A DNA stretch of 64,000 nt, from positions 6,409-70,408 of IMG/VR virus record IMGVR_UViG_3300032083_000683. One strand, given 5' to 3'. Position 1 is the first letter of the stretch; each line of letters opens with the position of its first letter. The notes beneath the pieces were generated by a model. The model ran no database searches. It was not told the origin of the DNA and saw only the letters and a list, made by a program, of their open reading frames with translations. The position numbers were made by a program, and so were the translations under genes. Shown here piece by piece: positions 3,021 to 50,200 of this stretch. The stretch comes from a virus.

Positions 3021-5249
3021 CGCAACCATTTTAACAAATTTGTTAAGAACTGGTCTGTTTAGCAACTTACCATTATTCATTTTACTAAATGCTCTCTTAA
3101 TCTCAGCCTTACTTGCACCAGCTTCAACATTTAAATCAGAGTTCAACTCTAATTTTTTAGTGCCTGGTAAAATGTAAAACTCATCATAACCTTTGGATTT
3201 TGCAACAAGAACATTTTCTTTTTTAAGAATATTTCTTAACTCTTTAAACTTTTCAGTTTCATAACAATTGATATCAAACTTTTCTTCAAGAACTCTTTGG
3301 TCTATTCTACCACTTTTGCCTGTTCCAGCAATGAAGAATCCAACAATATTCATACTAGGAACTCTTTTCTTTAGCAAAGACAAAAGCATAGGTGTTTGAT
3401 AATCATAACCATAATGGCCCTTTACTTTTTTAGGGAAGGCTCTGTTATTTGTAGCACTATCAGTTATTACATATTTAGTGTCACCCCTAACATAATAACT
3501 TTCACTATATATTTTAACACCATTAAAGTTTTCCTCTTTCACATGGCGGTAATACCTATGTAAACGATTACCATGCCCATCAGTTAAAAATACTGTGTTA
3601 ACTTTTTCTACACCAGTATCTTTTTTAAAATTAGGAACAATATCTAAAGCACAAATAATTGCCTCGTTTAGTGGTGTTGATCCTAAATGAAGTTCATGTG
3701 GTATTGATGGTGGCCAGTAACCTAAATTTCTACAAGTTTGTCTATCGTACGCAAAACATATTTTTAGCATATGTTTCATCATTTTAGATTGGTCTTTCTT
3801 TTTCATTTTACTTGACAGAAAATTGAGTAACCTAAGATTAGATATATCTAATTCACCATGATTAGCTGACTGAACTTTTTCTTGCATTTCCTCATCAGCT
3901 CTACAATCTATCCTATTCCAATTACTAGTAAAAGCATAAACCTCAAATGGAATCTTAACACGATTGCAAAACCATACAAGGTTAAATAATTGTTTCATAG
4001 TGCCTGCGAGATTTTCTGCCATTGAACCTGACCAATCTAAAAACATAACCATACCATGATTAGTTGCACCAGGCAAGTTAGTTACTTTTGCAAACAAATC
4101 ATCATTGAATTTATAAGTATGTAATTTACTCATATCAAGTGAGCCTGTTTTAGAAACTGAAGCACGAGCATATTGACTTGCAGCCTTCTTCATTTCAAAT
4201 TCTTTAACTAAATAAGAAACTACTTTTTTACTTGAATTTTCTACTTTAGAAAACTCATCATCAATGACACTATCCCAAACACTACTATCATCAATATTAC
4301 TAGAAGCTGCACTAAAAATTTTATCAGATGAAATAATTATCTTATCTAAATTAATTTTTGGTGTTTTAAGATAAGTTCTATCTTCAGCATTTTTATCTCG
4401 TAGTCCATCAAGTGATTTACTGTAAGTGTTATCTGTTTTAGCAACTATTGGTTTATTATCATAACTATCACTACCATACTTACCATTACTTTTTACCTCA
4501 ACTTTTTCTTCTTCAGATTCTGAAACAGTTTCGTCTTGAGTAATTTTGTTTAATCTCTCATCAATGTCTTTTTCTTCTGTTTCATTTTGTGAGTCATCAG
4601 AATTATTAGAATCATTTTGAGATTGTGTTTTTATTTCAACTTTTTCAGTATCGCCTTCTTCATTACCTTGCTGTGGAGCATAAGAAGGCTGTTGCTCTTG
4701 TTCTTGAGATTCTTCCTCTTGACTTTGATAGTCATATAATTCTTCTGCAAGATTTAAAACATCATCAGGTGTTTTAGTGTTTGCAACTCTATCAACCCAT
4801 ACTTGCTCGTCATTTGAAAAAGGAACATTAGGAACATTTTTAAAGTAAAGATTAATTCTATCAATCAATCCTAACTTTGAAATATCTTTTCCCTTTATGT
4901 CAAAGAAATCTTTTGCGTCTAATTCAGTATAACCTTTTTTGAAAGAATATTTTGAGCCAAGATACTTGTTTTGAATTAATCTCTCAATACGAGCATCTTC
5001 AATCACATTAACAAAACTAAATTCAATCTTGCGTTCTTTTGCCTCTTTTAGCATTGACAATGGTGTATATAACGCATGACCTACTTCATGTAGTGTTAAC
5101 ATATCTTGAACTGGTTTGGACATATCTTTCCAAATAGGTAAAACTAATTCTCTAGTTTCTACATTGAAAGAAGCAGTTTCTACTTGTTTATGAATAACAA
5201 ATAAATCTTCTTCAGCAAGTAATTTTGCGAGAGTAGAATTATCTTTCAT
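3018..5249 (-). CDS. CobT-like protein: N-terminal HExxH metallopeptidase-like domain plus vWA domain
   Basis: HEVGHALYTP, NVIEDARIE, acidic linker, MIDAS DWSGSM, STPLNE, LTDG; adjacent to cobS. Confidence 0.85.
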   Translation of the reverse strand: MKDNSTLAKLLAEEDLFVIHKQVETASFNVETRELVLPIWKDMSKPVQDMLTLHEVGHALYTPLSMLKEAKERKIEFSFVNVIEDARIERLIQNKYLGSKYSFKKGYTELDAKDFFDIKGKDISKLGLIDRINLYFKNVPNVPFSNDEQVWVDRVANTKTPDDVLNLAEELYDYQSQEEESQEQEQQPSYAPQQGNEEGDTEKVEIKTQSQNDSNNSDDSQNETEEKDIDERLNKITQDETVSESEEEKVEVKSNGKYGSDSYDNKPIVAKTDNTYSKSLDGLRDKNAEDRTYLKTPKINLDKIIISSDKIFSAASSNIDDSSVWDSVIDDEFSKVENSSKKVVSYLVKEFEMKKAASQYARASVSKTGSLDMSKLHTYKFNDDLFAKVTNLPGATNHGMVMFLDWSGSMAENLAGTMKQLFNLVWFCNRVKIPFEVYAFTSNWNRIDCRADEEMQEKVQSANHGELDISNLRLLNFLSSKMKKKDQSKMMKHMLKICFAYDRQTCRNLGYWPPSIPHELHLGSTPLNEAIICALDIVPNFKKDTGVEKVNTVFLTDGHGNRLHRYYRHVKEENFNGVKIYSESYYVRGDTKYVITDSATNNRAFPKKVKGHYGYDYQTPMLLSLLKKRVPSMNIVGFFIAGTGKSGRIDQRVLEEKFDINCYETEKFKELRNILKKENVLVAKSKGYDEFYILPGTKKLELNSDLNVEAGASKAEIKRAFSKMNNGKLLNRPVLNKFVKMVA

Positions 5250-5280
5250 AGTTTTTGCCTTATTTGTTAGTGATATGGTA

Positions 5281-5360
5281 ATTATGGACTATTACTATAT
5301 ATTTGTCAAGTGATTTTACACAAAAAGACAAAAAAAGAATTGTTTAAAATCAAGGACTTA
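5281..5360 (-). promoter_or_regulatory. sigma70 promoter with upstream IHF-consensus box
   Basis: TTGACA(5309-5304)-N17-CATAAT(5286-5281); AATCAAGGACTTA at 5348-5360. Confidence 0.7.
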
Positions 5361-11455: not shown

Positions 11456-12082
11456 TTATTGTTTTCCTTTTACATGATTTATAAAACCTTTTGTATCATT
11501 CAACGCATAACTTAAAATTTGATTAACTTGCAAATGATTAAACCAGCCTGTTGTAATATATTTGTCCTGTGTTGGTGATATGACACCACGATGTGTATGA
11601 GTAAAATCTGTGGGCCATATTAAAGTCCTACCTTTTACTGGTTTAATTTTTATATTCTGATAATAAAATTCTGTTTCTCCACCATCATCTACATCATTTA
11701 AATAAGTCATCCATACTAATGCTCTTTGAGGAGGATTACTTGAAGTTCTTTCATTGTGCCATTCAAAAAATCCCTCATTAGGAGCATAGTGTTGTATATT
11801 AAATCCCTCAAGCATTTCTAACCCAAAAAAACCACAGGAATATTTTTCAGTATATATTTCAGCAAGACTAAACAAATATTTCAAATATTTTTGTATTAAA
11901 GGATTATTTGTGTATGGTGGAATTGTTAAATCTGTGGAAACTTTTGCAACATTTTTTGTTTTTATACCAGTGCTACCTTTTGTTTGATGCTCTTCATTAC
12001 TTTTAAAATATTCTAAAAGTTCATCACAAATATACAAATCTTTATCATCAAGCTGTGCTTGTAATATAAAGTTTTCACTCAT
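11456..12082 (-). CDS. 2OG-Fe(II) oxygenase
   Basis: WHNER...WMTYLNDV..GGET.F...THTHRG...K; start moved to MSENF (12082) because it has an RBS and a promoter lies at 12111-12139. Confidence 0.85.
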   Translation of the reverse strand: MSENFILQAQLDDKDLYICDELLEYFKSNEEHQTKGSTGIKTKNVAKVSTDLTIPPYTNNPLIQKYLKYLFSLAEIYTEKYSCGFFGLEMLEGFNIQHYAPNEGFFEWHNERTSSNPPQRALVWMTYLNDVDDGGETEFYYQNIKIKPVKGRTLIWPTDFTHTHRGVISPTQDKYITTGWFNHLQVNQILSYALNDTKGFINHVKGKQ

Positions 12083-12110
12083 AAAATAGTCCTTTTTTAA
12101 AATTACAACT

Positions 12111-12139
12111 ATTCTACACAATTAAAGCAGTAATGTCAA
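12111..12139 (-). promoter_or_regulatory. sigma70 promoter
   Basis: TTGACA-N17-TAGAAT. Confidence 0.65.
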
Positions 12140-12149
12140 GTCTTATCAA

Positions 12150-12758
12150 TTATTTCCACTTTGCTTGATTAAGACTAATATAATGTTTATAATCTCTTTC
12201 AGTATCATTTGTATCATAAAAATTAAACCAACCAGTAACAATATATTTGTGTTGCGTTGGTGATGTGATGCCACGATGTAAATGTGTAAAGTCTGTAGGC
12301 CATATTACACATTTACCTTTTACTGGTTTAACTTTTAATTTTTGGTAAAAAAATTCTGTTTCTCCACCATCGTCTACATCGTTGAGATATGTCATCCATA
12401 CTAATCCACGCTGCCATGATTGAGTTGTTGTTCTCTCACAGTGCCAAGCAAAATAACCCTCATTTGGTGCGTAGTGTTGTATATTAAATGATTCTTTTAG
12501 TCCTATTTTAATCCTACCTTTAAGACTGTATTTCTCAAGATATTCAATTAATTTTCCTGATAATTGTTGCACATATTTTTGAATAGTTGGGTGCTGTGTC
12601 CAAGCAACTATAACATCAGTAGATTTTTTAATTTCAGCATCAGTACCATCAGAGGTTAAACCTCTCATTTTTTCATATACATTGTTTTTATGATATTCAA
12701 TTAATTCATCACAAACAGATACATCTTTTAACATAGTTTCATATATAAAATTTTCCAT
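12150..12758 (-). CDS. 2OG-Fe(II) oxygenase (paralog of 11456-12082)
   Basis: WHCER...WMTYLNDVDDGGETEF...THLHRG. Confidence 0.85.
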   Translation of the reverse strand: MENFIYETMLKDVSVCDELIEYHKNNVYEKMRGLTSDGTDAEIKKSTDVIVAWTQHPTIQKYVQQLSGKLIEYLEKYSLKGRIKIGLKESFNIQHYAPNEGYFAWHCERTTTQSWQRGLVWMTYLNDVDDGGETEFFYQKLKVKPVKGKCVIWPTDFTHLHRGITSPTQHKYIVTGWFNFYDTNDTERDYKHYISLNQAKWK

Positions 12759-12814: not shown

Positions 12815-13219
12815 CTAGTGAACAGTTCTACTTTTGATTTCTTGCATAAGTTGTTCAATTTCACTATCATCTAGTTTTTCCAAATCATCTTCTTCTGGTA
12901 TTGGTATTTCTTCTACTTTAGTCATTTTTGGCTCATCTAGTTTTTTTAAAATATATTCATAATATTTACTCAATCCATCTGAAGCTGAAACATTAATGAC
13001 AATTGAGTTTTTTTCAATTAAATAACTATCTTCATCAGTAAATGGTTTTATCCATTTTACTAATCCTAAAGTTTCTTTTATTCTTCCATCTCTACTTGAT
13101 GTTTGTTGCACATCTAATAACAATGGATTTTCAACTTTTATTTGTTCTTTAAGAGTTTCAACGATACGACATATTATATCTTCACCATTTGATAATTTTA
13201 AAACTGAATACTTATTCAT
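12815..13219 (-). CDS. conserved T4-like phage protein downstream of uvsW (Sm-like fold suspected)
   Basis: LKLSNGEDIIC...ENPL...WIKPF pattern and position. Confidence 0.6.
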   Translation of the reverse strand: MNKYSVLKLSNGEDIICRIVETLKEQIKVENPLLLDVQQTSSRDGRIKETLGLVKWIKPFTDEDSYLIEKNSIVINVSASDGLSKYYEYILKKLDEPKMTKVEEIPIPEEDDLEKLDDSEIEQLMQEIKSRTVH

Positions 13220-14703
13220 ATCTTTATCCTATCTATTTCATAATTAAATTGTTCTTCATTGTAGATATTTATTCTGTCTTGAAAATGGGACATTGTATAA
13301 TTAATTCTTCCTTTGTAGGAAAGATCGTCTGCGATGTCGTAAAGCCGAGTGGTATTGTTATCTTTAGAAATTCGCAACCCTCGTCCAATGCTTTGTAGCA
13401 CTCTAATTCTTGACTTACTTGGACTAGAGAACACGACATTATGGAGATTCCTAATATTAATACCAGTGCTAAATGTGCCGTACGATGCAACAATAATCGC
13501 ATCTGTTTCTTTTTCAGTGATTGCACGAATCTTTTCCCTAGTTTCTGTATTTGTTCCACCATATACAAAAAATACCTTTCTTTTAAAATCTTTCATTAGT
13601 GAGTGTAACACAACTCCATGTTTTTCTACAAGTTTAAAAAGACACAAAGTGTTTCCATTAAGAGTATCGCACAGCCGAACAATAAAACTATTGCGTTTAT
13701 ATAAACTAACCAAGAAATCCATTTCCTCTGCATATGTAAAATCCTTAGATTTTTTACAATCGTCCTCTGAATGTTTTAGCACTACACATTTTATATCAAG
13801 AGTTGCAATAGTTTTTTTATCCATCAACTCTTTTGTAGTTGTTACTTTTTTTACTGAGCCAAACAAACCCTCTAAAATTAATCTATGAGTTTGTGTTCCA
13901 TCTAATGTTCCAGTTAATCCAAATCTATATTTACACATATCAAGTTTTGTCATAATACCAGTAAGTGATTTTGCTTTGAACATGTGAGCCTCATCACCTA
14001 TGACACACCCAAACTGACTAAAATATTTTTTAGGTAATTTATATAAAGATTGCCATGTTGATATGAATATAGATTTGTCTGACTGTAAATCATGCCCAGC
14101 ATAAATTCTATGTAAATGTTTTTCACTCCACCCATAATCAAGAAAATCAGAAAACATTTGCTCAACTAAAGATGTCGTTGGAACAAGTATTAATATCTTT
14201 TTATCCTGTAAAGTTTTATAGTATCTTACTAGTGCATAAATGATAAGTGATTTACCAGAAGCAGTTGGGCTTACTAATAAACATCTATTTTTTTGTATCG
14301 CATGACAAAATGCATCTGATTGATAATCTCTTACCTCTAACTGTTTTCCTTTTGACATTGGTTTAAGAGAAATGATATATTCCCTTGCTATATTACAGTT
14401 AATCTCTCTATCACTCTCTATATCGTTCTCAGAGGTATATTCTATATCATTTCTATTACAAAACTCTTTTATGTAAGGTAATAATCCCACATAAATTTTA
14501 CCAGTCTGCTGTGAAAATAATCTTATCTTACCATCCCAAACACGACTACGATAGGTAGGCATAAACTTTGCACCAGGCACTTCAAAGGTAAAATAATCTG
14601 CAAGTTCTCTTGAAACTGCATCATCTACTTCTATGTGATAATAGACTTCGTTAAGTTTAGATATGTGCATATTGTAAAGTGTTTGGCTCACCATATTCAC
14701 CAC
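13216..14703 (-). CDS. uvsW: UvsW RNA-DNA/DNA-DNA helicase
   Basis: SPTASGKS, DEAH, GLTGT, QSIGRGLR; true start probably MHISKLNE (14670). Confidence 0.95.
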   Translation of the reverse strand: MVNMVSQTLYNMHISKLNEVYYHIEVDDAVSRELADYFTFEVPGAKFMPTYRSRVWDGKIRLFSQQTGKIYVGLLPYIKEFCNRNDIEYTSENDIESDREINCNIAREYIISLKPMSKGKQLEVRDYQSDAFCHAIQKNRCLLVSPTASGKSLIIYALVRYYKTLQDKKILILVPTTSLVEQMFSDFLDYGWSEKHLHRIYAGHDLQSDKSIFISTWQSLYKLPKKYFSQFGCVIGDEAHMFKAKSLTGIMTKLDMCKYRFGLTGTLDGTQTHRLILEGLFGSVKKVTTTKELMDKKTIATLDIKCVVLKHSEDDCKKSKDFTYAEEMDFLVSLYKRNSFIVRLCDTLNGNTLCLFKLVEKHGVVLHSLMKDFKRKVFFVYGGTNTETREKIRAITEKETDAIIVASYGTFSTGINIRNLHNVVFSSPSKSRIRVLQSIGRGLRISKDNNTTRLYDIADDLSYKGRINYTMSHFQDRINIYNEEQFNYEIDRIKI

Positions 14704-15331
14704 GAGCTATAATGTTCCAAGCAATACTAATTCTTTCATCATTTGTTTGAGGCACCCAATGCTGTAACCAAGATGGAAAAATAATTCCTATTCCTATTGA
14801 AGAAGATTGAATACTATTAAATTTTAATTCCATTAAATCTGAATTTAAATTATTTTGTTCTTTTTTTCTTGGCCTAAAAACACTAGCTTGTGGCCTAGGG
14901 TCAAAAAAAACTATTGGAGAAGAATCTAATGATGATTGTAAATAAAATACTCCAGATAAAAAATTATTTGAGTGCGTGTGTGGGTGATGTGCAGACCTAG
15001 ATGAGTTAGGTTTAAGTATGTTTCCCCACATATTTGTTATTTCTAATTTTTCATACCCATATCCTAAATCTTCCATTACATCCTCAGTATGTTTATAGAT
15101 AGAATTAACTAATGGTTCAAAAACTTTAGATTCATGTAAGTGACGATTTTCTTGAGTTCCTAATCTCCGAACTTTTTTACCATCTTTTTCTGATATACTT
15201 TCAGATGCGATTAAATTGTTCATATCATTTCTTTCATTATTTTTAAAATTATGTTCAAATTTATAAATACAAGTAGGAAACGCATCAATTCTTTCCATAT
15301 TTTTTACATTAGCCATGTTACTATACTCCAT
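14657..15331 (-). CDS. 2OG-Fe(II) oxygenase (TIGR02466-type)
   Basis: MWGN...HPHTHSNNFLSGVFY...FFDPR...IFPSWLQHWV...RISIAWN. Confidence 0.85.
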   Translation of the reverse strand: MEYSNMANVKNMERIDAFPTCIYKFEHNFKNNERNDMNNLIASESISEKDGKKVRRLGTQENRHLHESKVFEPLVNSIYKHTEDVMEDLGYGYEKLEITNMWGNILKPNSSRSAHHPHTHSNNFLSGVFYLQSSLDSSPIVFFDPRPQASVFRPRKKEQNNLNSDLMELKFNSIQSSSIGIGIIFPSWLQHWVPQTNDERISIAWNIIARGEYGEPNTLQYAHI

Positions 15332-15858
15332 CTTTCACTATCAGTTATTTTTTTTACTTCATGTGGAAACATAAAGTTAGAAGGAAAAATAATACCTGAA
15401 CCCATTTTAGTTTTATACTTATTACCAGACACTACAAGTTCACCACCCTTGTAATTATCATTTAAAAATAATAATGCACTTACTTGTGGAAAACCATATT
15501 CTTGTCCATGCGAGTGGTGTATATTATCAGTATGCTCTGACATAAATCCACCAACTGAATATCTGTTTATTCTAAATCCAGAATGTCTTTGGCAACTAAA
15601 TTTATCAAATTTTTCTGAATATTTTTTAATTACTTTACCAAAAAAATCATTAATTATACTAACTACATTTTTATCTTTCACCCACATATCATCCATAACA
15701 ACTCTTTTATTACTATTTTTTATTTCCCCAGAATCGTTTGCATATGTTGATGGTTTTAGTTGCCCACTATTTTTTGCAAATTTAATTATATCTTGGCATT
15801 TGTTTTTAGGAATAATATCTTCATAATAACCTATCCATTTTTTTAAACTATTCATCAC
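15304..15858 (-). CDS. 2OG-Fe(II) oxygenase (prolyl-hydroxylase-like)
   Basis: EHTD...LNDNYKGGEL...IFPSNFMFPHEV...RWSIVTW. Confidence 0.85.
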   Translation of the reverse strand: MMNSLKKWIGYYEDIIPKNKCQDIIKFAKNSGQLKPSTYANDSGEIKNSNKRVVMDDMWVKDKNVVSIINDFFGKVIKKYSEKFDKFSCQRHSGFRINRYSVGGFMSEHTDNIHHSHGQEYGFPQVSALLFLNDNYKGGELVVSGNKYKTKMGSGIIFPSNFMFPHEVKKITDSERWSIVTWLM

Positions 15859-16283
15859 ATCATTCCTGCTTCAAATTGTCTCCAGCTGATTGCATTTTTG
15901 ATATCCCATTGCCTACTTTGAATAGATTTTAAAATACCATCAATGTACTTAATGACAGATTCTAAGTATGCAATTTTATGCTCTGCTTTAATGATATCTT
16001 CATCAGATTCTATATAAATGTGTAAATCGTTTTTGAGGACTTTAAGGTCAAATGGTTTGGTTACATAGACTTTTGCATCAGCCTTACCACCATAGTATTC
16101 CCATTTTTCACGATACAAAACTTTGTAATCACCTTTTGCACGATACAATAAAAATTCAAAGTTTGTTTTGTGGTCAAGATACTTTGCATAAAGTTCTTGG
16201 TTTTTGTAAGATTCAGTATCTAGTCGTTCATCATTTATCTTCAAGTCTTTTTCAACTTGAGCTTTCAACTCATCAAGTGTCAT
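15855..16283 (-). CDS. uvsY: UvsY recombination mediator
   Basis: KWEYYGGKA...PFDLKVLK.D...RQWDIKNAI.W..FEAG. Confidence 0.9.
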   Translation of the reverse strand: MTLDELKAQVEKDLKINDERLDTESYKNQELYAKYLDHKTNFEFLLYRAKGDYKVLYREKWEYYGGKADAKVYVTKPFDLKVLKNDLHIYIESDEDIIKAEHKIAYLESVIKYIDGILKSIQSRQWDIKNAISWRQFEAGMM

Positions 16284-16295
16284 AATTACTCCATA

Positions 16296-16874
16296 TTATA
16301 TTGTTACTATTTCATATATTTTATATTGAAAATTTACCTCTACAGTTAAATACTCTACATCAGTAGCAGCTTGTGTATAACTTAATCCACCTAAAGATGT
16401 TGGAAAAATATCTTGAAAACGAACTTCTACTAGTGGATTATTTTTATTAGATAATATTGTAAGTGTTGCATCACCATACATTCCTCTATCTGGTGTTGCT
16501 GGTTGTGTATCTCCAATATCATTACTTGTTCCTAAAGTTGCTTGTGGACTGTTTGAAGTTGAGGATCTAAAAGTTGCAAATTGTGTTCTACTTTTAGGAA
16601 AACCAGTTCCAGTAATCCAATCATGTATTGTTATATAATTTTCTAAAAACTCATCTACAATAAAAGATATTGTTAAATCTTCATAGTCTGGCTTATCACC
16701 TAGTGTTGGAATATTTTTAAATGGTGTATTGTAAGTTGCAGCTGGTAAACTAACGCCAGGCAAATTTGCAGCTGTAGTAAAAAACTCAACTTTAGGAAGT
16801 TGATTAATACTAAACTTAAATTGAGTTGGTGAAGAATAGTCTAGTTTAGTTGGTTGTCTTGATATTGATGTCAT
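16296..16874 (-). CDS. gp3: tail completion and sheath stabilizer gp3
   Basis: SPTQFKF...PKVEFF...LPG...FIVDE.LENY..IHDW...FP.SL; start at MTSIS, just downstream of late promoter 16880-16887. Confidence 0.85.
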   Translation of the reverse strand: MTSISRQPTKLDYSSPTQFKFSINQLPKVEFFTTAANLPGVSLPAATYNTPFKNIPTLGDKPDYEDLTISFIVDEFLENYITIHDWITGTGFPKSRTQFATFRSSTSNSPQATLGTSNDIGDTQPATPDRGMYGDATLTILSNKNNPLVEVRFQDIFPTSLGGLSYTQAATDVEYLTVEVNFQYKIYEIVTI

Positions 16875-16879
16875 AACAT

Positions 16880-16887
16880 TATTTATA
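16880..16887 (-). promoter_or_regulatory. T4 late promoter TATAAATA (gp3)
   Basis: Exact consensus. Confidence 0.7.
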
Positions 16888-16891
16888 ATGT

Positions 16892-16921
16892 AAAAAAGGG
16901 ACTCCATAAGAAGTCCCTTTT
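16892..16921 (-). terminator. intrinsic terminator after pqqA
   Basis: AAAAAAGGGACT...AGTCCCTTTT hairpin. Confidence 0.75.
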
Positions 16922-16944
16922 CTGTTTGACAAATTTAAATTTGA

Positions 16945-17016
16945 TTACTTGTTAGCAATATACATTGTTACTTCAAAACCAAATCTCATTTCTTCGTATG
17001 ATGGTGTATTCCACAT
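16945..17016 (-). CDS. pqqA: coenzyme PQQ precursor peptide PqqA
   Basis: Hand translation MWNTPSYEEMRFGFEVTMYIANK*; W-x-x-P leader and GFEVTMY core with the E-x3-Y pair; AGGAG RBS at 17025-17029. Confidence 0.93.
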   Translation of the reverse strand: MWNTPSYEEMRFGFEVTMYIANK

Positions 17017-17096
17017 GATAATATCTCCTATTATAATATTACTCTTATATAGTATTTTTAAATTGTTTTAACCATACAGAAAATCATTATTTTTAC

Positions 17097-17129
17097 AAAA
17101 AAAAAAGGGAAACCGAAGTCTCCCTTTTT
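17097..17129 (-). terminator. intrinsic terminator after gp23
   Basis: A10-GGGAAAC-CGAA-GTCTCCC-TTTTT; UUCG loop on the minus strand. Confidence 0.8.
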
Positions 17130-17159
17130 AGTTTTGGTTGGTTATTCCAACTCTTGTTA

Positions 17160-18491
17160 TTACATAAGGTTTGTAACTTTAACTCGTCTGTAATACTTGT
17201 TAGTGTTACCAGTAATACTGATTGCACCCTCGGCTGTTGCAGCAACTGTTCCAGTATGGAATGGGTTAGCAGCAATTCCGTAACGAGTCTTAAATCCAAT
17301 TTTTGGTTGGAAAGTGTGCTCACCAACTGCACGAACCATTTGTAATGGAACATATGGGCAGTAGAACATACCAGCATCGTATGGTGATGTACCTTTGTAA
17401 CCAACAACATAGTATTGTGATGCAGCTACATTTGCAGCATATGGATCAACATATACTTTATATCTACCATTAAGTACACCAGCAAATGTTGTTGTAGTGT
17501 CATCAACATTTAAGTTGTTGTTAAGAGCAGGAGCATAGTCAAGAACACCAGCCATTTGAAGTGCAGATGCAACATCAGCAGAACAAAGGATCATGTTACC
17601 CTTTCCTCTACGAGTTTGTTGACCGATTGCGTTTGCGTCTCTTTCAACTGCGAACATTAAACCCTTGAACTTCTCAACACTCCATCTACCATTAGAATCT
17701 GTGTCAAGGTCAAAGATACCACCAGTTGTTGTATTAGTTTGAGCACCAGCAACAGCTGTTACATAAATGTTTCTAACAACTTCTCTGTTAATTTCTGCAA
17801 GAATTTCAGCAGATAAGATGTTTGCAAGTTCTGTTTCTGCATCTAAACCATGAATTGCTTTTAAGTCTTGAGCAAGTTCCATTGAATATTCTGCTTTAAG
17901 AGCTCTAGTAACTGCTGTTACTGTGTGCTTCTCAATTGAGAAAGCCATCTCAGCGAATACATTAGTAGATGTGTTATCACCTAATGCTTCACCTTGTGCA
18001 GTTGTCATACCAGTTACAGTTTCGTATGTTCCAGCAGATGGGCTGTCATTTAATACAGCAGGGTTAGTTGCAGTATCAGTAACATCACCACCACCAGTTG
18101 TACTAGCTTTGTTCTGGTTAGAGAAATCTGGCATAGACTCGTCAGCAAGTGCTTCAGCACCAGTTTGCGAATTGAATCTTGAACGCATTGCAAAGATAAG
18201 TCCAGTTGGGCCTGTCATTGGTTGCACACCACAAATGTCATATGCAATTAAGTTTGGCATTGATCTTCTAACTAAAGAAATGAGAATCGGATCCCAATTA
18301 TCAACTGAAGATCCAGTTGAGTTAGATGGTGCAGCCTCTGATAGAAATGATCTATCTTCTCTTAAGGCTTTTTCTTGGTTTTCAAGAATTAAAGTAGTAA
18401 CTGCCCTCTTGTAAGAATCGCTGATTTCAGGTAAATCAGGATGTGCAAGGACTGGCTTCCACTTTTCTTGTAGATCTTGTGTTTGATACAT
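17160..18491 (-). CDS. gp23: major capsid protein gp23
   Basis: DPILISLVRRSMPNLIAYDICGVQPMTGPTGLIFAMRS; RALKAEYSMELAQDLKAIHGLDAE; FQPKIGFKTRYG. Confidence 0.98.
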   Translation of the reverse strand: MYQTQDLQEKWKPVLAHPDLPEISDSYKRAVTTLILENQEKALREDRSFLSEAAPSNSTGSSVDNWDPILISLVRRSMPNLIAYDICGVQPMTGPTGLIFAMRSRFNSQTGAEALADESMPDFSNQNKASTTGGGDVTDTATNPAVLNDSPSAGTYETVTGMTTAQGEALGDNTSTNVFAEMAFSIEKHTVTAVTRALKAEYSMELAQDLKAIHGLDAETELANILSAEILAEINREVVRNIYVTAVAGAQTNTTTGGIFDLDTDSNGRWSVEKFKGLMFAVERDANAIGQQTRRGKGNMILCSADVASALQMAGVLDYAPALNNNLNVDDTTTTFAGVLNGRYKVYVDPYAANVAASQYYVVGYKGTSPYDAGMFYCPYVPLQMVRAVGEHTFQPKIGFKTRYGIAANPFHTGTVAATAEGAISITGNTNKYYRRVKVTNLM

Positions 18492-18517
18492 TGTATCTCT
18501 CCTTATTATTTTCTACT

Positions 18518-18525
18518 TATTTATA
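18518..18525 (-). promoter_or_regulatory. T4 late promoter TATAAATA (gp23)
   Basis: Exact consensus; further copies at 19997-20004, 25691-25698, 37033-37040, 47266-47273, 56416-56423, 60113-60120 and 60438-60445 (minus) and 25739-25746 (plus). Confidence 0.8.
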
Positions 18526-18533
18526 ATTTTCTG

Positions 18534-19961
18534 TTACTTTGCACTATTGCCAAACTTACCAATTGCAGACATATATGCCTTCATTGAATCAGTTGTGTCA
18601 ATGTCCTGTGCTAGGCCAGTTTCTACATCATCAATAGTTTCAGTCGGTTCATCTTTTTTTTGCTTTGGGAAGTAGTTTTCTTTTAAAGTACCTAACTTTT
18701 CACGAAAGGATTCTTCATCAGTAAATTCTACATCTTCAATTAGTGACTTAAACTTCTCAATTTCTGTATCAGCCAAATCGTTAGTTTCCTGACGAATGAC
18801 TTGCTCCCTTACTAGACTTCCGTTGTTCTTTTTCAAGTCTACTATTTTCTTAACAGACTCGTTCAACTTACTTTCTAGTTCGGTAATTTTTTCTGATTGT
18901 GCTTCTAACACATCGTATTTCTCATCTGGTATATCAACATAATGGTCTTCAAATAGAGTTTTTAATCCAGAAATGAAGTCCTCTGCAATTTCGCCTTTTA
19001 AGCCTCTTTCAATTGCAAGTTCATTTTCTTTCATCCATTCCTCAACGACATAGTTCAAATAAGTATCAACTTTTTCTGATAAATCTGACTTTGTCTTTTG
19101 GATATTTTCTTCTAACTCAGTTGAATATTCTTGCTCTAAACGAGTAACTTCGTCACGAATTTTAGATTTAACTGCAGCTTCAAATACTGTTGCAGCTTTC
19201 TTCTTAAATTCTTCAGATAAGTCTCCCTCACCATTGATAAGAGCATCAACATGTTCTTTTACATCAACTGATTGAACTCTCTTTTCAATAGCTTCTTCCA
19301 TATCCTTATCATCTTCCTCGTCATCTTCTTCATCACCATGAGCAGCATTGTTTAATCTATCATACATTGCTTTTAACTCGTCTTTCTTTGCATGTTTCAT
19401 CATGTTATTCATTGCAGTCATGTATTCAGTTTTAGTTTTTGGCTCTTTTTCTTCTTTATTGTGTGAAGATTCAGAGATAATTTCCATATCACTTGCCATA
19501 ACTTTTTCTTCAATACCATGCTTGAATTGAACATCATACCACTCAACATGTCCGTCATCATCTGGAATTGCGTGTGACTTTAAGATTGGTTTACCTTTAC
19601 CCCAAATTGGGTGTTCCACGACTGTTGCACAATCATGGTCTTTAGAATGGCATAACTCACGAATTTCTTCGTCTGTATAACCTTCTTTTACTTTTTTCAT
19701 TTTTTCTGGTGCAACTTCACCTTTTTGTGCTTTATCACCACTAACTTCTTTAGAAGCTGCAGCAACTTTTTTAGCAGGTGAATCACCTTGAGTTGGTGAC
19801 ACTACAGCTTTACCTGTATCTTGCATTTCACCATTCTTTTGTTTCTTCATAGGTTCTGCTGGAACAGCAGACTTTTTAGGAGCATCGTGCATGGCTTCGT
19901 CCAACTCAGCAATGACTTCCGCTTCTAATTCCTCAATGGTTTTGTCTAATTCATTCGCCAT
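18534..19961 (-). CDS. gp22: prohead core/scaffold protein gp22
   Basis: LSEEFKKKAATVFEAAV, VDTYLNYVVEEWMKENELAIERGL; lies between gp21 and gp23. Confidence 0.92.
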   Translation of the reverse strand: MANELDKTIEELEAEVIAELDEAMHDAPKKSAVPAEPMKKQKNGEMQDTGKAVVSPTQGDSPAKKVAAASKEVSGDKAQKGEVAPEKMKKVKEGYTDEEIRELCHSKDHDCATVVEHPIWGKGKPILKSHAIPDDDGHVEWYDVQFKHGIEEKVMASDMEIISESSHNKEEKEPKTKTEYMTAMNNMMKHAKKDELKAMYDRLNNAAHGDEEDDEEDDKDMEEAIEKRVQSVDVKEHVDALINGEGDLSEEFKKKAATVFEAAVKSKIRDEVTRLEQEYSTELEENIQKTKSDLSEKVDTYLNYVVEEWMKENELAIERGLKGEIAEDFISGLKTLFEDHYVDIPDEKYDVLEAQSEKITELESKLNESVKKIVDLKKNNGSLVREQVIRQETNDLADTEIEKFKSLIEDVEFTDEESFREKLGTLKENYFPKQKKDEPTETIDDVETGLAQDIDTTDSMKAYMSAIGKFGNSAK

Positions 19962-38409: not shown

Positions 38410-41400
38410 CTATGTTGCCAATGCAATTGCTCTTAAATCTTTAATTCTTGGTGGATTAGCTGCATCTGTTCCTTGCATAACAATCTTAATTTGAAAAGAT
38501 ATGAACTCATCAAGTGCATCACCAATACCATCATCTTTAATCCCAGCAGAGAATGAATACTCTTGGAAATCATCCTTACCTAAAGAATTTGGTGGAACTG
38601 TGTCTGCAAGTCCAGTATCATTAAAGAATGTATATCCTAATTCATCAAGACTAGATGTATCATCAGTTCTTAATATTTTGAACAATACTTTTATCTCCGA
38701 AGTATTTACTTTATTTGCAGAGAAAAACACTCTTAATGCAGTAGCAGGATTTTCTAGCTGAACTGATTTTGTTATATAAATTGCAGAATTATTATCACCA
38801 TCAGGCTCGGTAGACGGAGCATAATCTGAGGTAGGATAAACATCTGATGAACTATCTATGTTATCTAATCTATTTGCAACTAAAACAGTAGATGCTCTAT
38901 CTAAATCAATTACTGGTGAAACATTAGAGTTTGTAGTATTAAGTGTAAGTATAGTTTCTAGCGACTTAACCGAACTCATTTCATTTGCCTCATTAATATT
39001 TGATGCAACCATTTTACTTATATCATGTTCAAAGTTTTCACCAATCGGTACAAAAGTATTAGTAGTTTCTTTTGTAAATGAAGTTTCTGTTCCAGATGGA
39101 CTTGTTGCAGTTGTTCCTTTTATAGCTGCAGTTATAACAGTATCCTCAACTTCCATAGTATTTAAAACAGTTTTAGTAAGCTCATATCTATAATTTTCAG
39201 ATGCATAAACATTTATTCCACCGACTTCTGTATCAGTAGATGCACCAGTTACTGATGCAGATGTTGATAATGCAATTGTATATGAATCCATCTGTATGTT
39301 TGCAATAGCAGTATGAGTTTTATTAATCTCTGTAAGTGGAACACTATTAATCATATATAACTCAATTGTTGCATCATCTGAGTGTGCAACAGCTGTTGAG
39401 CCACCTTGCCCTCTGGTAATACTTGATAATGTTGTTCCAGATATTGTTCCAGACATTATTTCGTTACTAATTTTAATATGAACTGTTCCTGAACTTGGAA
39501 AATTAGTTGATGATGTTAGAGTTAAAGTTGTTGCAGTATCAGTTATTGCACCATCTAATGTTGTTGATATTCCAGATGTAACACCAGTAATTGTTACATT
39601 ATTAGATGTGCTGTACATTCCATGATCTCTATGCTTTACTTTTGCAACAGCAGAACTATTAGTTAAAATAATTGGATTTGAAAGTAATCTTGCACCATAA
39701 ACAGTTGAACCAATTTCATTTGTAACTGCCTGTCCAATAATATCATTTTGTAATGTGACTGTTCCAGGCGTTGTTGAGAAATTAGCTGCATGTAAAGTAA
39801 ACTTCATGTCTTGAGATTGAACTGCATCCCAAGTTGTATTATTCTGTGATTTAAACAATGAACCTAAATGTGGTTGTGTTGATATTAAACGATTAGAGCC
39901 AGACACATCTTTTTCACCCATTTGTGCAATCCACAATTTGTAATCTAAACTATTTGACATTACAACAAAACAATATTCTGTTCCCTCTTGTATATAAACT
40001 GGAGAATCAAAAGTAAATGTGGTTACAGCAAGTCCATTGTCTGGATCTAAAGTAACATCTGATGGCTCTAAAACTTTTCTACCAAATGGTAACAGTTTAG
40101 GGCCTGGATAACCATTGATAACATTTCTTACTTCTACCCAAACTGGTAAATCGTTATCTTTTTCAGAGAAAAATAAATCTAGTTTTGTTAAGAAAGAGCC
40201 ACCTCTTTTATATGTGATAAATGTTTGTGCAAGTGGATCACCACCTTTATTGTGTACAACAATAAATTCATCATGCTCTTTCATTTTAACCATGTAAGTA
40301 TGATTACCAGTTAAAACAAAGTTATATAATTGTAAATCTCTTTTATCTTCTAGGTACTCTATGGAAGTAACTTCAATAGTTTTATCTCCCTCACCAATTA
40401 ACATATCACCAATTTCTAAAGTTTTTAACTCTATTTTATTTCTATCTAAAACACCTTTATGAATAATTTTAGACTTTTCAGCATTTGGTGCTTTCCACCC
40501 ATCTGTTGTTAAAAACATATGGTCTTCAGATGCATCATATCCACCATTATTTAAACTTACCATTCTTAAAGGAGTTTCTATTGCAATATCGTCATCACCT
40601 AAAAGTGGCCTATGGAATTGTAAAACTTCATTAATCATTCCATCTTGTCCAACAAGTTTATCACCTATTTCTACATCCTCAATATTCTTTTCAATTCCAC
40701 CCTCTAGTAAAACTTTTGTTTCACCTCTAAAGCATCTATTATGAACTAGCCAACCATTTGCATAATATGTTTTATCCCCATCAAGAGAAAAATTGTAAAC
40801 TGGTGTATCACTATCAACATCTTTTGTTTGAATAGAATTAACAACCACAGAATTACCATCGTGAGTTACAATTTCATCACCAAGTTTAAACTCCGTTGTA
40901 TTAAGTTCTTTATACCATGGCTTATCATTTGCCATTTCTGGATTAACAACTTTCCACCCATTGTTTGTCATTATAGGGTGGTCTTCTGTAAAGAAAAATT
41001 CACCATCATTAATAGATACTAATTTTCTTCCATCAGCAATTGCATGCTGTAAATGTATTACTGTATTATAAGAACCTTTTGAATTTAAAACTCTATCACC
41101 AACAACAATATGTTCAATATCTTTATAATCACCATTTTCAAGTAACACTTTTGTTCCAGCAATAAAACAAATTGATGCAGGCCTATTTTCTCTAATTGTA
41201 CTTGTTGATGTAAATTTACTTGTTGTTTGGTTTACTGATGTTTGAACAACTCTCGCATTTCTAGTTGAGATAATTGTTTCTTGCTCAGTTTCTATTACAC
41301 CCTTTGCAGTATATATTTCTTGTCCGGCTGTTAAAGGTAGTGTTGACCTATCGTCAGTTGAGCTTGATGTTAATCTAAATTCTACATCACCTGATTTAAA

Positions 41401-44400
41401 TTTAGGCACAGCTTGTTGCCCTGCAAATCTATATTCTGGTATTCTAAATGTAAACTCTACTTTACCAGCACCATTTGTAACTAATGCACTACCCTCAACT
41501 GGATTATTACTATCAGAAAATTCTGATGAAGATGGAGTAATGAACTGACTAACAGCTGTTCTATCAAAGTATGCATAAAGTCTAGTTCCTGGCCTAAAAC
41601 ATTCACCAGTTATAGTAATAGTTCTTGGGCGAACAAATGGAATTAATGCTCTTGATATAATTCTTTTACCTTGAGATTCATGCTCAACATGTTCAACAAC
41701 TGATGTTCTTACACCAGTTCTTTTTAAATCTGTTCTTGATGTTGTAGTCGTTCTAGTGCCTGATCGCACACTTGGAACTTGTTGACCCCAACGACCAGTT
41801 GTTGTAGTTCTTACACTTGTTCTTTCAGTTTTTGTGCTAACAACACCAGACCATTGTGTTTCCCAATTGTTCCAAACTGTTCCTAAAGCTCCAGAGTTTT
41901 TTAGTGCATTTTTAACGCTGTCAAAGTTACCCTCACGATTAATTATAAGTGCTGGTGCTTCTTCGGTTTCAAACCATTCATCACCACTTGGTGATAGTGT
42001 TATTTTACCAACCCATTCTTGTATCAAATAAGTTTGAACATTTTCAACTCTTGTTGCATACGGCTGTTTAATTAATTCCTCATGCGTGTAAGGTAAAGTC
42101 AATAAATCACCAGTTTTTTGATAACCAGCAGATGCTCTTGCAGTGTCTGTAGTTGCAAGCTCAGTAAGTGAAGAATTTCTCATTACACAAATTGGACGAG
42201 CTTCATTCTCCTCCATATCAATTGCAATTTTATAATCCTTATTTAAAGTATCACCAACTTTATGCCCAGAAAAATTATCTACAATGAAACCAGATTTAAA
42301 TCTGTCTAATCCATTTGCATCTTGAATCTGGAATGATTCTGCATCTCTTTCTAATAAATTAAGTGCAGTATAAAATTCTAAATTTTCTATTCTTTCTTGT
42401 AATCTACCAATATCTCTCATGGTAAATCTTTGTGTTTTATACCTTTGTATTTTCATTCCATTTGCAACTTCTGTAAATGCTGGAATGTAAATAGTTGCAA
42501 GTTTCATTGCATTGTCTATATCTTTTGGCTCTGTTGGATCTTCAGCAGATACACCCTCTACTACTTTAAATTCACCATCTGGTAGTAAAAATACTGATGC
42601 AAATTTATTAAGAAAAAATTCAAAATCATTTGTCATTGCAGCACCAGGCTGTGGTGTATCAACGACAACTGCACCAGTTGAATCAAATGTTCTATTTGTG
42701 TGATTAAATGAATTTCCTGTGATTTCATCAACTGCTGTAATTACAGTTGACGCACCAGTTACATTTGAAACAGTAGGCCTAAAGTCTACACTATTTCTAA
42801 GTTCAAATGAACCTGATGGCTCTGGATCGTCTGGGTCAATTTTTGTCGCACTATAGTCTGGTATATCTGCATAATTCATTTGCCCAGAAACAGAGGAATA
42901 AGAATCAACAGAGAAAAAGTCTCCAGCACCATGCTCAAAAAAGTCATAAACAATTAACAGTCTACCTCTTGGAGCTGCAACGCCAGGTTTTCTAACTAAT
43001 CTTGAAATATCGTAATAAGTATCTCTTTGTCCATTGTCTAATGTAAAGTTACTTGTAATCACTTTACTACCAGCAGTAACACCACCAGTATCAATTGTTG
43101 CAGTTGCACCTGAGTGAACACCAGTAATTGTTTCACCAGCAATGAAATCAGTCGCACCAAATCCACCAATTAAAACATATTGCAATGGACTTGCAGTTGT
43201 GATTAATCTACCTTTAGCACCAGATGTTCCACCAGTAATTCTTTCACCTCTTTCAAATACACCAGTTGCAGAAGATATAGTAAGTGTTGGTGCAGTTGCG
43301 TCTGTAGAAGTATCCTCTGAATCAAATACTGCATTGAGTCTGAATACATCTGCACGGCCAAAAGAAATAGTTTTATCTGCTGGCCTTGTTCCAAATGCAT
43401 CTGTAGCACCAGTAGTAACTTTCAATTGCTTCATCAATTGAGTAGTTTTAATCTTTGGTTGCTGTGCAGATTTTGTAAGTGTTGCTAAAACTTTAACTTT
43501 TGCACCAGATCCAAATACAGTATTATCTGTAATTGTAAGTGTTTGTGTTCCAGTTCCAGAAGTATTACCACTTGCAGAAACTATATCACCAGCTGCACCA
43601 CTACCAGTTCCAGCTGTAATAATTGAAACAAGGTAATCTTTTTCTGCAAAAGTAACAAATGTTTCATTTGTTCCAGCACTTAAAGTTACAACACCAGATG
43701 CGTTTGATGTTGCGACAAATTGTGTTCTTGCATTAAATGATGTATCACTTGCACCACTGTTTGATTCTGTTTTAAGTGTCTTAATTGGTTCTTTAGGTAA
43801 TTTGAATACTGCAATAGATTTTTCTGAATCTCTTACTTTAGCTTCTTCTTGAACTTCTAGTCCAACTGCAAAACCTTGAGCATCTGTATTACCTGTTTCA
43901 AAAACTATACGATCAACTGGGTCAGCATCATTATTAAATCCACCACCTCTAAACACTGCATCATCATCTGTTCTTTCTAAAAGAATGTCAGCTGAAAAGT
44001 TTGTAGTAGTTGAACCACCTTGTATTTGTCTTGCTTCTCTTAATTGATTTGTTTCTATGGAAACAATTGTTAAATCTGTATCAGTAGCATCTTCTACAAT
44101 TAAATCTGTTTCAGATGAATCTGATGCTTTGATTTTTTCTCCAGCTGAAAATTTACCTACAACTTGAGTTAATATAACTTTATCTCCAGATGTTCCAGTT
44201 GGGAATACAAATCCTGTCGCACCAGAAGTGTTGCCTGTAACTTGAACACCACCATTAGAATGATTTGCAAGTAAAGTTGCACTTGGAGTTCCAGACATTG
44301 TTAATGTCGTAAACATTTGAGTATCAAATACTGACAACTTATAAACTGATTCTGTATTTGAACTTGTTGCGCCTGGAGTTTGTCCTTGCTCAAATTCCAT

Positions 44401-47280: not shown

Positions 47281-50200
47281 TTATACTGTTATTCCTGTTG
47301 CACCCTCTAAATCAAAATTATCTCCAGCATTTGATGATGTGCTGTCTGTTCCGTTTAATACTAAATAACCATGAGAAGTTACACCATCTATATTGTTTAT
47401 AGTTTCGTCCTCTAACGCAATATCACCAGTTGTCCTCACAACAATTTCTGATGCTTGAACTATTGGTTGAGCCCCTACTGGATTTACACTACTATTTAGT
47501 GTCCAATTCTCAATAGGTATCTGTCCTTCTGAAATAATTAAATTTGTTGACTCAAGTAATAATTCTGATGCAGTATCATTTCGTAATGAATCTTCTAGTA
47601 ACACTTTATCGCCTGCATTAGGAATTGGATCATCAATACCCGTTCCGTTTAATATAATTACATCATCACCACTTGTTCCTTGTATTTCTAGTTTAATACC
47701 AGAATCATCTGTAAGATCTTCTTGTGATTCTAAATTAAGAAGTGAACTGTTTTCACCCTCTAAAAGTATTCTTTCAACAACTGAATTAGAAGAATATTCT
47801 TCTTCAATTAAACTTCCAGATAGTTCTAAAGTAAACCTATTTCTTTTTGTAGTTTCTTGCAACAAATGATTACCAGCATTTGATGATGTACTGTCTGTTC
47901 CATCTAAAATAAGTTGTCCAAAATCCTCAAGAAGAACTCCAGTATTTTCAATTGCATTTGCATTATTTTGCTCTACTGATTTACTAAGATTATCATTAAT
48001 AATAATTTTACTCTTATTAAGAATATCGTTAAAAGTTAAACTATTTACATCACTGAGTTTAACTGAAGTGTCATCATGGTCATCTTCTAATAATATTTTT
48101 TCATGCTCATTTATATAATACCCAACTGGAAATGCCCATGTATCTGATTCAGCCATGAGAACAGAATCATCACCACCTTGCTCTAATAGTATTCTATCTT
48201 TTAAGCCTCTTGTTACAAAAGTAGAATCCTCTTGTAATATTCTACTACCATCTTCCATTAAAATATTACCGCCATCATCTGTACCAGATCCATCTGTTGC
48301 ATTTAATACAACATGGTCTCTATCCTCATCACCCTCAAGTAATATTGGAACATTAGGGTCATTAAATGGAAGTGTTCCATCTATGACTAAGTTACCAGAC
48401 TCAAAAGAACCCTCAGTTGAGTTTTCTAATTGTAGTGCAGATTGCCCACTTCCAAAAGGATTTTGTGCAAGTTGTAGTAAAAGATTTCTTGCAGCTCTAA
48501 CTGTAGGCCTTGTAGATATATCTACCTTTGTTCTTTTAACTAAAACTCTCTCTGCTTTACCACTCGGTGCATGAGAAGTTTCTGCCATGAGCCTACCACC
48601 ACCATCATCATTGGTATCTCTTTCTGGATTACCCTCAAATAAAATATTGTCTCCAGCATTACTTGATGAAATATCTGTTCCATCAAGAATAATCGTATCA
48701 TCTCTATCACCTCTATCACCATCTGGTGCAACTTCTAGTCTACTTTTAATAACTTGGTCAAATATAGTTTCAAATGTAGATGCAAGTATTGGTGAGAATC
48801 TATCATCACCAGTAAATCCTGATAATGTGGCACCAGCATTTGTTACTGCAACTGATATTGCAGATGCAATTGACACTTTACCAAATGGTCTAAATCCAGC
48901 TGGGTGAACTGCTTTCTTGAGTTCATTTACATAAGTTCCAAATGCTTCACCAACTTGAACCTCATATGAATAATCTTGATAGTAATAAGAGTCTTGAACA
49001 CGAATTAAATCTTCACCTATTAAACTTTTTATACCACTATAAGAACCCTCAGAAGTTGATGTTTGTCCTATTTGACTTGATGCAGTTGCAATGTCTGCTT
49101 TGATGATTGTTCCTGTTGCACCAGTGTTGTCAGTTATAACAACATTATCTTTACTAAAATCTATTGCATCTTCATTAATAATATTGTCACCAGCATCACT
49201 TGATGAACTATCAGTTCCATCAAGAAGTATATCTCCAGTTCCAGTTTCATCTTCTCCTAGTAAATTACTATTTGCATCAGTAGAGTCTGAATCAGTTCCA
49301 TTTAAAATTAATCTGTTTCCAGCTTCTTCTATTGCAACAACTTCACCAGCTGCTGTTCCGTCAGAATCAATTCCATCAAGGAGTAAAAATTGCCCTGATA
49401 AATTTTCTTGATACCTATCTAATTTAATTACACCTACTCCTGACTCTGGTGCAATAAAACTTGAATCACTAACTTCTAAAATAAATCTATCACCAGTATC
49501 AGAAAAACCAGTAAGTGTAACTCTTGGTTCATTTTCCTCCATGACTAAAATGGAATCTTGTCCATCATTAGAACCAACTTCTAATAAAATATTATCATTT
49601 TGGTCAACACCACCAGATGCAGTTTGATTAAATCCTATTCTTGATTCTCTTGTGACTGCAAGACTTTCTTGCATTAAGAAACCAAGTCCTGTATCAGTTC
49701 CGTCCTCTAATAAAAGTCCACGAATAGCAGTTTGACTTGCATCTAATAAAACATTTTCACTCTCATCTTCTATGGTGGTTTGTGGATCTGGTGTATATGC
49801 AAGTCCACCCATACCAGAGTGATTTACACAATAATAATATAAGTCTGGAGCTCCAGATGCAACAACTATTTGAATATATGCACCTGTTGTTCCAATATCA
49901 ATATAAGATGCAGAAGTTGTAACACCATCAGTATATTCAGATCCACCACCATGTGTTCCGTTTGGTGTTATTGAAAATTTAAGTTGATGATTTTTAGATG
50001 ATACTGCGTTGTACAACGAACTATCTGATAAGTCAAAGTAATAAGTGTTACCCTCTGTTAATCTAAGTGTTGGTTGTGGAACACTATCAATTGCAAAAAT
50101 GTTAGCAGTGTCTGATGCATTTCTAACAACAGTAACTTTTTTAGTAATTGTTCTTGTGGATGGTGTTGTAATTGATGTTCCATCTAATAAAACATCTTCA

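Follow-up and report, generated by a model that had tools for sequence, protein, structure and literature searches.

A pqqA cassette behind the major capsid gene of a marine T4-like phage: a probable stand-alone auxiliary metabolic gene

The DNA studied here, hereafter the window, is a 64-kb part of a linear 70,408-base IMG/VR record whose completeness is estimated at 39%. Behind its major capsid gene lies a 23-codon gene that both sequence models of the PqqA family confirm as a genuine phage pqqA. This gene is probably functional, a stand-alone auxiliary metabolic gene that would feed the PQQ enzymes of the host during infection. We base this reading on the identity and anatomy of the gene, its insertion into the phage genome, its spread among viruses, the purifying selection that it appears to be under and the enzymes encoded by candidate hosts.

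Results

The record and the neighbours of pqqA

The record has a GC content of 28-36% and every large ORF lies on its minus strand. Among deposited phages, Pelagibacter phage Mosig and Methylophilales phage Melnitz come closest, with about 72-73% nucleotide identity over gp23. The genes 5' of pqqA encode portal, head protease, scaffold and gp23, and those 3' of it the tail tube, UvsY, 2OG-Fe(II) oxygenases and a helicase. The features of the junction are as follows.

17160..18491, minus strand: gene for the major capsid protein gp23 (Pfam Gp23 PF07068, E 9.7e-146), 5' of the cassette
17102..17129, minus strand: intrinsic terminator T1, from the terminator scan; a 12-pair stem and then a T-run, 30 nt past the gp23 stop
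17044..17071, minus strand: candidate sigma-70-type promoter, degenerate, found by eye (TTAAAA-16-TATAAG, 9/12, without the final T)
17025..17029, minus strand: Shine-Dalgarno sequence AGGAG, 8 nt 5' of the pqqA ATG at 17016
16945..17016, minus strand: pqqA, 23-residue PQQ precursor peptide (PF08042 and TIGR02107 above cut-off; cross-link residues E15 and Y19)
16892..16923, minus strand: intrinsic terminator T2, directly 3' of pqqA (-19.6 kcal/mol, z -6.3)
16880..16887, minus strand: TATAAATA box just 5' of the tail-tube start, of putative function
16296..16874, minus strand: tail-tube gene (phrog_45, E 4.1e-34), 3' of the cassette

The downstream neighbour had been taken for gp3 in the first-pass annotation and is, by its phrog_45 match, the tail-tube gene instead. 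Its ORF as listed extends to 16907; translation probably begins at the in-frame ATG 16874 instead, because the ATG at 16907 sits in the T2 loop and the annotated start of Mosig aligns with 16874. The TATAAATA box ends just 5 nt from ATG 16874, which would leave almost no leader.

Four 2OG-Fe(II) oxygenase-type genes were seen near UvsY and the helicase (11456-12121, 12150-12758, 14657-15331 and 15304-15858), as well as two very long minus-strand ORFs further away (38410-45744, 2444 aa; 47281-52344, 1687 aa). Neither tRNA genes nor Rfam families were detected when the window was scanned. The ORF at 12815-13219, which carries a "methylamine utilization" label (PHROG 471), was rejected as a host clue, Pfam assigning it to the Sm-like family (PF16243).

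A genuine pqqA by both family models

The minus-strand ORF at 16945-17016 translates to MWNTPSYEEMRFGFEVTMYIANK and stops with TAA; the 23-codon frame and its AGGAG ribosome site (17029-17025) are present just as the first-pass annotation had them. By itself a frame of this size is uninformative, because 80 ORFs of at least 20 aa occur between 14000 and 20000 of the window, and its significance comes from the PqqA models. PF08042 (Pfam PqqA) matched the peptide with 41 bits (cut-off 21.1, E 1.7e-10) over profile positions 1-19, that is, the whole 19 positions, and TIGR02107 (NCBIfam equivalog) with 47.4 bits (cut-off 20, E 1.1e-12). Both curated cut-offs were thus exceeded about two-fold, and the identification as PqqA, for which a model search had been proposed, is borne out.

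We then aligned the window peptide with six phage copies and one bacterial operon copy (alignment A1). Ten of its 23 residues, W2, P5, R11, G13, F14, E15, V16, T17, M18 and Y19, were invariant, W2 and P5 lying in the leader, and E15 and Y19 were also invariant in 67 distinct viral coding sequences. The roles of this Glu and Tyr, which are cross-linked by PqqE, and of the leader are those given in the available text of PMC10906245.

The nearest bacterial peptides, 74-86% identical, come from Burkholderiales and other betaproteobacterial MAGs, Methylophilaceae, Methylotenera and Methylophaga, in line with the beta/gamma-proteobacterial type that had been read from the sequence.

Selection on the viral copies

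Selection was estimated on 83 viral coding sequences, 67 of them distinct, which encode 34 distinct peptides. In the core (residues 9-19) pS was 0.655 and pN 0.025, a pN/pS of 0.038; the ratio was 0.21 for the whole peptide and 0.55 for the leader (residues 2-8), the most variable part, all these values being inflated by ascertainment since the loci had been found with [FI]GFEVTM and the regular expression had W, P, R/K, G, E and Y as set positions. Arg11 was encoded by AGA plus four CGN codons. Equal length, the start codon, W2, P5, N22 and the position of the stop lie outside the search pattern (the core motif) and yet were kept. Judged from these substitution patterns, and with the same reservation about the size of the figures, the core of viral pqqA is under strong purifying selection.

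These data bear on the idea that the peptide is a decoy or regulator, which would occupy host PqqD or PqqE, or have a role unrelated to PQQ, and so lower or redirect PQQ synthesis in the host. The variable leader would suit it, as binding to PqqD could then differ from that of the host peptide. However, neither the cross-link Glu and Tyr nor the rest of the core varies, and strong purifying selection acts on them; from a blocker one would expect the loss of a reactive residue. Several phage peptides are also nearly identical to host ones (20/23 residues between Venkman and the OM43 type in our own comparison), and another virus pairs pqqA with a methanol dehydrogenase gene (available text of PMC7678222), which fits supply rather than blockade. 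We consider a decoy quite improbable.

The cassette as an insertion at the gp23-tube junction

By alignment, the junction reads gp23 stop, T1, an A/T-rich stretch, the ribosome site, pqqA, T2, ATAAATA and the tail-tube start, and in Mosig T1 and the ATAAATA box alone are found. The gap between gp23 and the tube gene is 89 bp in Mosig, 95 bp in Melnitz and 252 bp in the window (to the listed ORF start).

An IMG/VR scan with gp23, from which the 80 closest loci were kept (72-97% identity), gave 62 loci with both gp23 and a downstream tube homologue. Only two of these 62 evaluable relatives (2/80 of all) had pqqA at the junction, and they were those whose gp23 was at least 96% identical to that of the window, L013 and L171 (the latter being the same contig as L014). 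In 45 of the 62 the gap was 30-75 nt, and in 15 other inserts of 161-1478 nt occupied the junction (loci L172-L249), these sizes being approximate as they were extrapolated from a 203-residue ORF. The inserts include ferredoxin (L243), aspartate carbamoyltransferase (L187), a piece of a Na/Pi cotransporter (L197), a glycosyltransferase (L174), and Usg-like (L190), DUF4278 (L172) and DUF6445 (L247) sequences. Mosig, Melnitz and 60/62 evaluable relatives are without pqqA at this site, the absence from related phages that characterizes a phage moron or auxiliary gene. On these comparisons, the pqqA cassette was inserted behind gp23, at a junction that is a hot-spot for cargo.

The order gp23-pqqA-tube-uvsY was also found on the independent contigs L013 (gp23 97% identical), L014 (96%) and L019 (63%). 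The tube protein of L019 is only 31% identical to that of the window, yet pqqA occupies the same site, which points to a second insertion or an exchange. Recurrence of the junction also speaks to the suspicion of an assembly chimera or host contamination, in which a bacterial pqqA stretch was wrongly joined to a phage contig. The record does come from metagenome assembly, and many organisms in the same water share the conserved core of pqqA; but the same junction, with both terminators, is present in contigs of other IMG/VR data sets (L013, L014 and L019), and 14 DNA runs from five studies contain 0.91-1.00 of the words sampled from 15800-19000, three of these runs being possible sources of the record. 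A chimera is hardly credible.

Comparison of the 256-base cassette by blastn with 240 loci revealed no donor among the 80 bacterial ones. Its flanks aligned with phage loci only, namely L013, L014 and L010, and partly L059, L060, L065 and L069.

That pqqA could be a neutral hitch-hiker, host DNA recently captured at a permissive insertion site and of no benefit to the phage, is suggested by the hot-spot itself, with its other inserts in 15/62 relatives, and by the restriction of the pqqA insert to the closest relatives (gp23 at least 96%). Against it, the best 80 of at least 592 viral copies all keep an intact frame of equal length, synonymous change being saturated and replacement in the core almost nil; the gene turns up repeatedly in phages of unrelated types, in either orientation and at differing genome sites; and the cassette flanks match none of the 80 bacterial loci. 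We regard this explanation as very improbable, and retain that of a functional gene.

In other loci pqqA adjoins the 3' end of a capsid gene: L059 (pqqA 4001-4069, capsid gene 4132-5307), L069 (2713-2781 and 1398-2570) and L067. The head modules concerned are of the T4 type, and their gp23 shares only about 33% identity with that of the window. The orientation of pqqA behind the capsid gene varies, being convergent or antisense in three loci (L059, L060 and L065) and the same as that of the capsid gene in two (L067 and L069). In L059, L060, L065 and L069, nucleotide similarity of about 70% extends into the region upstream of the window cassette.

Terminators and promoter signals

The first-pass annotation placed pqqA between two terminators, and both T1 (-15.8 kcal/mol, z -3.4) and T2 (-19.6 kcal/mol) fold strongly. 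None of 200 shuffles of T2 was as good, and T2 is absent from the list of the terminator scan. T1 is conserved in the alignment with L013, L014, L019 and Mosig. A hairpin followed by a T-run (-10 kcal/mol or better) was found 3' of 47/80 viral pqqA genes (the best 80 of at least 592) versus 2/366 control positions. T2 thus gives the window gene the terminator of its own that is typical of a phage moron or auxiliary gene.

The promoter and terminator scan of the window made no call for the candidate promoter at 17044-17071. The columns aligned to it read TTGAAA-16-TATAAT in L013 and TTGACA-16-TATACT in L014, each scoring 11/12, a sigma-70-type score attained by 2/362 control stretches. Consensus sigma-70 promoters (at least 9/12) were not enriched 5' of viral pqqA, with 9/80 (the best 80 of at least 592) versus 43/362 controls. 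Across the upstream sequences compared (66 distinct ones from phages and 79 from bacteria), nothing was conserved but AAGGAGA at -12 to -6; a shared upstream promoter motif for pqqA was thus rejected, the ribosome site alone being conserved.

The TATAAATA box, which we take to resemble the T4 late-promoter consensus, has 12 matches in the window, 10 of them on the coding strand. Most lie 19-60 nt 5' of the starts of structural genes, including gp23 and gp22 (by reading against the ORF list), and a search of the whole window gave none 5' of pqqA. ATAAATA is kept in 5/5 aligned sequences at the gp23-tube junction.

Late expression of pqqA by read-through from gp23, as proposed in the first-pass annotation, finds no support in these data. 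The strict form of that proposal, a late gene transcribed only through T1 from the strong gp23 late transcript, can appeal to the co-orientation of pqqA with gp23, 144 nt past the gp23 stop, to the weakness of the sigma-70-like match in the window (9/12, without the final T) and to the fact that a consensus promoter is not general 5' of viral pqqA. However, T1 has a 12-pair stem and a long T-run, pqqA is not preceded by a TATAAATA box, and L013 and L014 show 11/12 promoters in the matching columns, as high as in 2/362 controls. Moreover, in Venkman, MEP301, the spring virus MW202481, L010 and L059 the gene runs antisense to those beside it, so that read-through from the neighbours is impossible there and an own promoter is needed. 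We find the strict form doubtful. As to where pqqA transcription starts, an early promoter of the sigma-70 type belonging to the gene itself, which is strong in the closest relatives but weak in the window, is about an even call; some read-through from gp23 is a lesser possibility, and any other source makes up what is left.

Metatranscriptome contigs

Four metatranscriptome runs, all kept as contigs, which give neither strand nor level, were compared with 15800-19000. Contigs of runs X15, X16 and X17 cover the bins 16870-17083. This cover was rejected as proof that pqqA of this phage is transcribed, as the contigs match the conserved core only and diverge at 16961 and 16992. One loose contig end, reverse-complemented by hand, encodes the tail YVCNK-stop of an OM43-type peptide. 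Since the contigs end unlike the window, one of them with an OM43-type tail, they derive from other pqqA genes. RNA pieces without any difference from the window were on gp23 and gp22 only. For the contig with the OM43-type tail, contig depths in X17 sum to about 1000. Contig depth is a poor measure, and this is no more than a hint of strong transcription of pqqA genes in seawater.

Stand-alone pqqA in other viruses

An IMG/VR scan with the peptide alignment gave at least 592 confirmed stretches (at least 600 listed). The best 80 of these all had an intact pqqA ORF of the same length (80/80), and none of the 80 had pqqB-E in its flanks of up to 4 kb, whereas the same queries found pqqB-E near pqqA in 29/80 bacterial loci. 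The first-pass annotation had seen no pqqB-F in the window, and this extends to the full 70,408-base record, itself about 39% complete, where pqqB-E (best tblastn E 0.26), PqqD and PQQ alcohol dehydrogenase all gave no match. Further pqq genes may lie in the portion of the genome beyond the record, although the complete genomes of isolates contain none. Linkage to pqqBCDE, which the window gene does not have, is not strictly defining, as 51/80 bacterial loci and three OM43 copies are unlinked as well.

When the peptide was compared by tblastn with 50,697 phage records, 12 matched. Ten are real phage records: P19250A, Venkman, MEP301, MEP401, MEP402, four Melnitz variants and the uncultured spring virus MW202481. 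The other two, both "Acinetobacter phage MD-2021a", were rejected as phage pqqA because they carry a bacterial ppk-pqqABCDE region; these records (L008, CAKLQF020000010.1 105710-110763, and CAKLQH020000055.1) look like bacterial contigs filed as phage, and were the only ones among the 50,697 to contain PqqC. PqqC and PqqE were absent from the five isolate phage genomes searched, and both models matched in 5/5 bacterial genomes. No pelagiphage in the 50,697 records matched pqqA by tblastn.

The isolate-phage genes are intact and 64-74% identical to that of the window, and in none of the six isolate phages is the gene annotated as PqqA. Their sites vary: pqqA of Melnitz is beside tRNA-Leu and gp5, about 53 kb from gp23, and in Venkman and MEP301 it lies inside recombination modules, on the strand opposite to the genes beside it. 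More generally, viral pqqA may often be directly behind the capsid gene, in either orientation, and may be missed by gene callers almost everywhere because it has only 23 codons. A hypothetical CDS is drawn opposite an intact pqqA in L002 (3461-3556, Melnitz MZ577097.1 76100-76195) and in L006 (2067-2195, MW202481.1); such opposite-strand CDSs are probably gene-caller artefacts that hide a real gene of 23-24 codons. Five "Methylophilales" records matched a 2.2-kb query, and gp23 was matched by the four Melnitz records only; the fifth probably matched through the pqqA stretch.

We tentatively suggest that stand-alone pqqA, with carriers among siphoviruses, Zobellviridae and at least three diverged T4-type lineages, may be a hallmark, acquired repeatedly and independently, of phages of PQQ-dependent methylotrophs.

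Candidate hosts and their pqqA genes

All nine real pqqA-positive phage records with a stated host infect Methylophilales/Methylophilaceae; other named methylophages exist, among them MEP431-434, HIM624-A, MG-MTP1 and RSA-MFP1. By this association, the PQQ-using, possibly methylotrophic host suggested in the first-pass annotation gains ground. The five candidate host-type genomes carry a single pqqC and a single pqqE each, together with 1-3 pqqA genes and 1-7 PQQ alcohol dehydrogenases. The three pqqA genes of OM43 strain LSUCC0665 all lie more than 100 kb from pqqC and pqqE. The RuMP hexulose-phosphate synthase was found in OM43 alone among the five genomes; that it was not found in the MAGs with the nearest peptide type is weak evidence, these MAGs being incomplete. 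A host call from the peptide type was rejected as too close, with 18/23 residues matching the marine betaproteobacterial MAG type and 17/23 the OM43 type in our own count. A PQQ-using host is well supported, and this host is likely methylotrophic and likely an obligate methylotroph.

Methylotrophs keep several pqqA genes, and one strain has five, three of them separate (PMC9851590); the extra copies are read as raising precursor supply. We observed two or three tandem pqqA genes about 100-300 bases apart in several bacterial loci (L091 4255-4420, L101, L102 and L127), and up to three pqqA genes 5' of pqqB in Methylophaga-type loci.

Discussion

We infer that the phage gene is expressed, that its product is processed by the host and that the phage benefits, along the following lines. 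A cassette made of a ribosome site, 23 codons and its own terminator was inserted between the capsid-gene terminator and the tail-tube gene, and through it the phage would supply only the consumable part of the pathway, one PqqA being spent per PQQ. The PqqD chaperone, the radical-SAM enzyme PqqE, PqqB and PqqC of the host are catalysts that could outlast host shut-off. Host PqqD would bind phage PqqA through its N-terminal leader (W2 and P5), and PqqE would cross-link E15 to Y19, the peptide maturing to PQQ. The periplasmic PQQ-dependent methanol and alcohol dehydrogenases would thereby stay supplied during infection. One counterpoint is that PQQ is a cofactor, not consumed by catalysis, and the need for new PQQ within one infection cycle is unclear.

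Viral pqqA as such has already been published, and the first-pass annotation overrated its novelty. According to the available text of Coutinho et al. 2020 (PMC7678222), virus population VP_266 of Lake Baikal encodes PqqA and a methanol dehydrogenase gene; viral PqqA is also listed among viral phosphorus genes of reservoir sediments in the part available of PMC13188868. The term pqqA is absent from the available text of the papers on Melnitz (PMC9004378), MEP301 (PMC8024684) and MEP401/402 (PMC10580990) and of the Venkman preprint, and "pqq" from an mBio 2026 paper on two further methylotroph phages. No other report of viral pqqA was found in the literature searched, which covers main texts. 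Within that literature, the wider pattern, with unannotated pqqA in six isolated methylophages and its recurrence beside capsid genes, has apparently not been published.

That a phage should bring just a consumable cofactor precursor suggests a vulnerable step in the energy metabolism of the infected host. The abundant coastal methylotroph OM43 has a PQQ-dependent XoxF methanol dehydrogenase as its most highly transcribed gene, according to the available text of PMC5120137. If stand-alone pqqA is truly a hallmark of such phages, the supply of precursor peptide would be the first step of cofactor synthesis to fail after host shut-off, and a 69-base gene could mark the host metabolism of uncultured viruses. 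The gene is invisible to standard annotation and is therefore probably undercounted in viral gene catalogues. Cultured systems that would allow a direct test are Melnitz or Venkman on strain H5P1, for which the published medium includes 1 nM PQQ (PMC9004378).

Comparison with known systems

The window gene resembles bacterial PqqA (TIGR02107/PF08042) in its 23 residues, its full-length match to both models, E-x3-Y, the W..P leader, the strong ribosome site and the terminator hairpin. It differs in its carrier, a T4-like phage of lytic type, in the absence of pqqB-E from the record and in flanks that match none of 80 bacterial loci.

With VP_266 it shares a methylotroph virus that carries PqqA, for which a boost of the PQQ supply to methanol dehydrogenase was proposed (available text of PMC7678222). 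Compared by description, VP_266 is from fresh water and has a methanol dehydrogenase gene, whereas the window belongs to a marine T4-like myophage with pqqA alone in 70 kb. The likeness to P19250A, Venkman, MEP301, MEP401, MEP402 and Melnitz lies in an intact stand-alone pqqA, although the genome sites differ.

The orphan copies of multi-copy pqqA in methylotrophs are likewise away from pqqBCDE, as with the three of OM43 (all more than 100 kb away). Those are chromosomal and under host regulation, whereas the window pqqA travels with the phage.

Morons and auxiliary metabolic genes are a familiar concept for T4-like marine phages. As in such morons, the window pqqA is a small host-derived gene with its own terminator, lying between conserved structural genes at a cargo site. 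In contrast to them, a promoter of its own is clear in the two closest relatives only, and it is an unusual auxiliary gene in that its product is a consumable substrate and not an enzyme.
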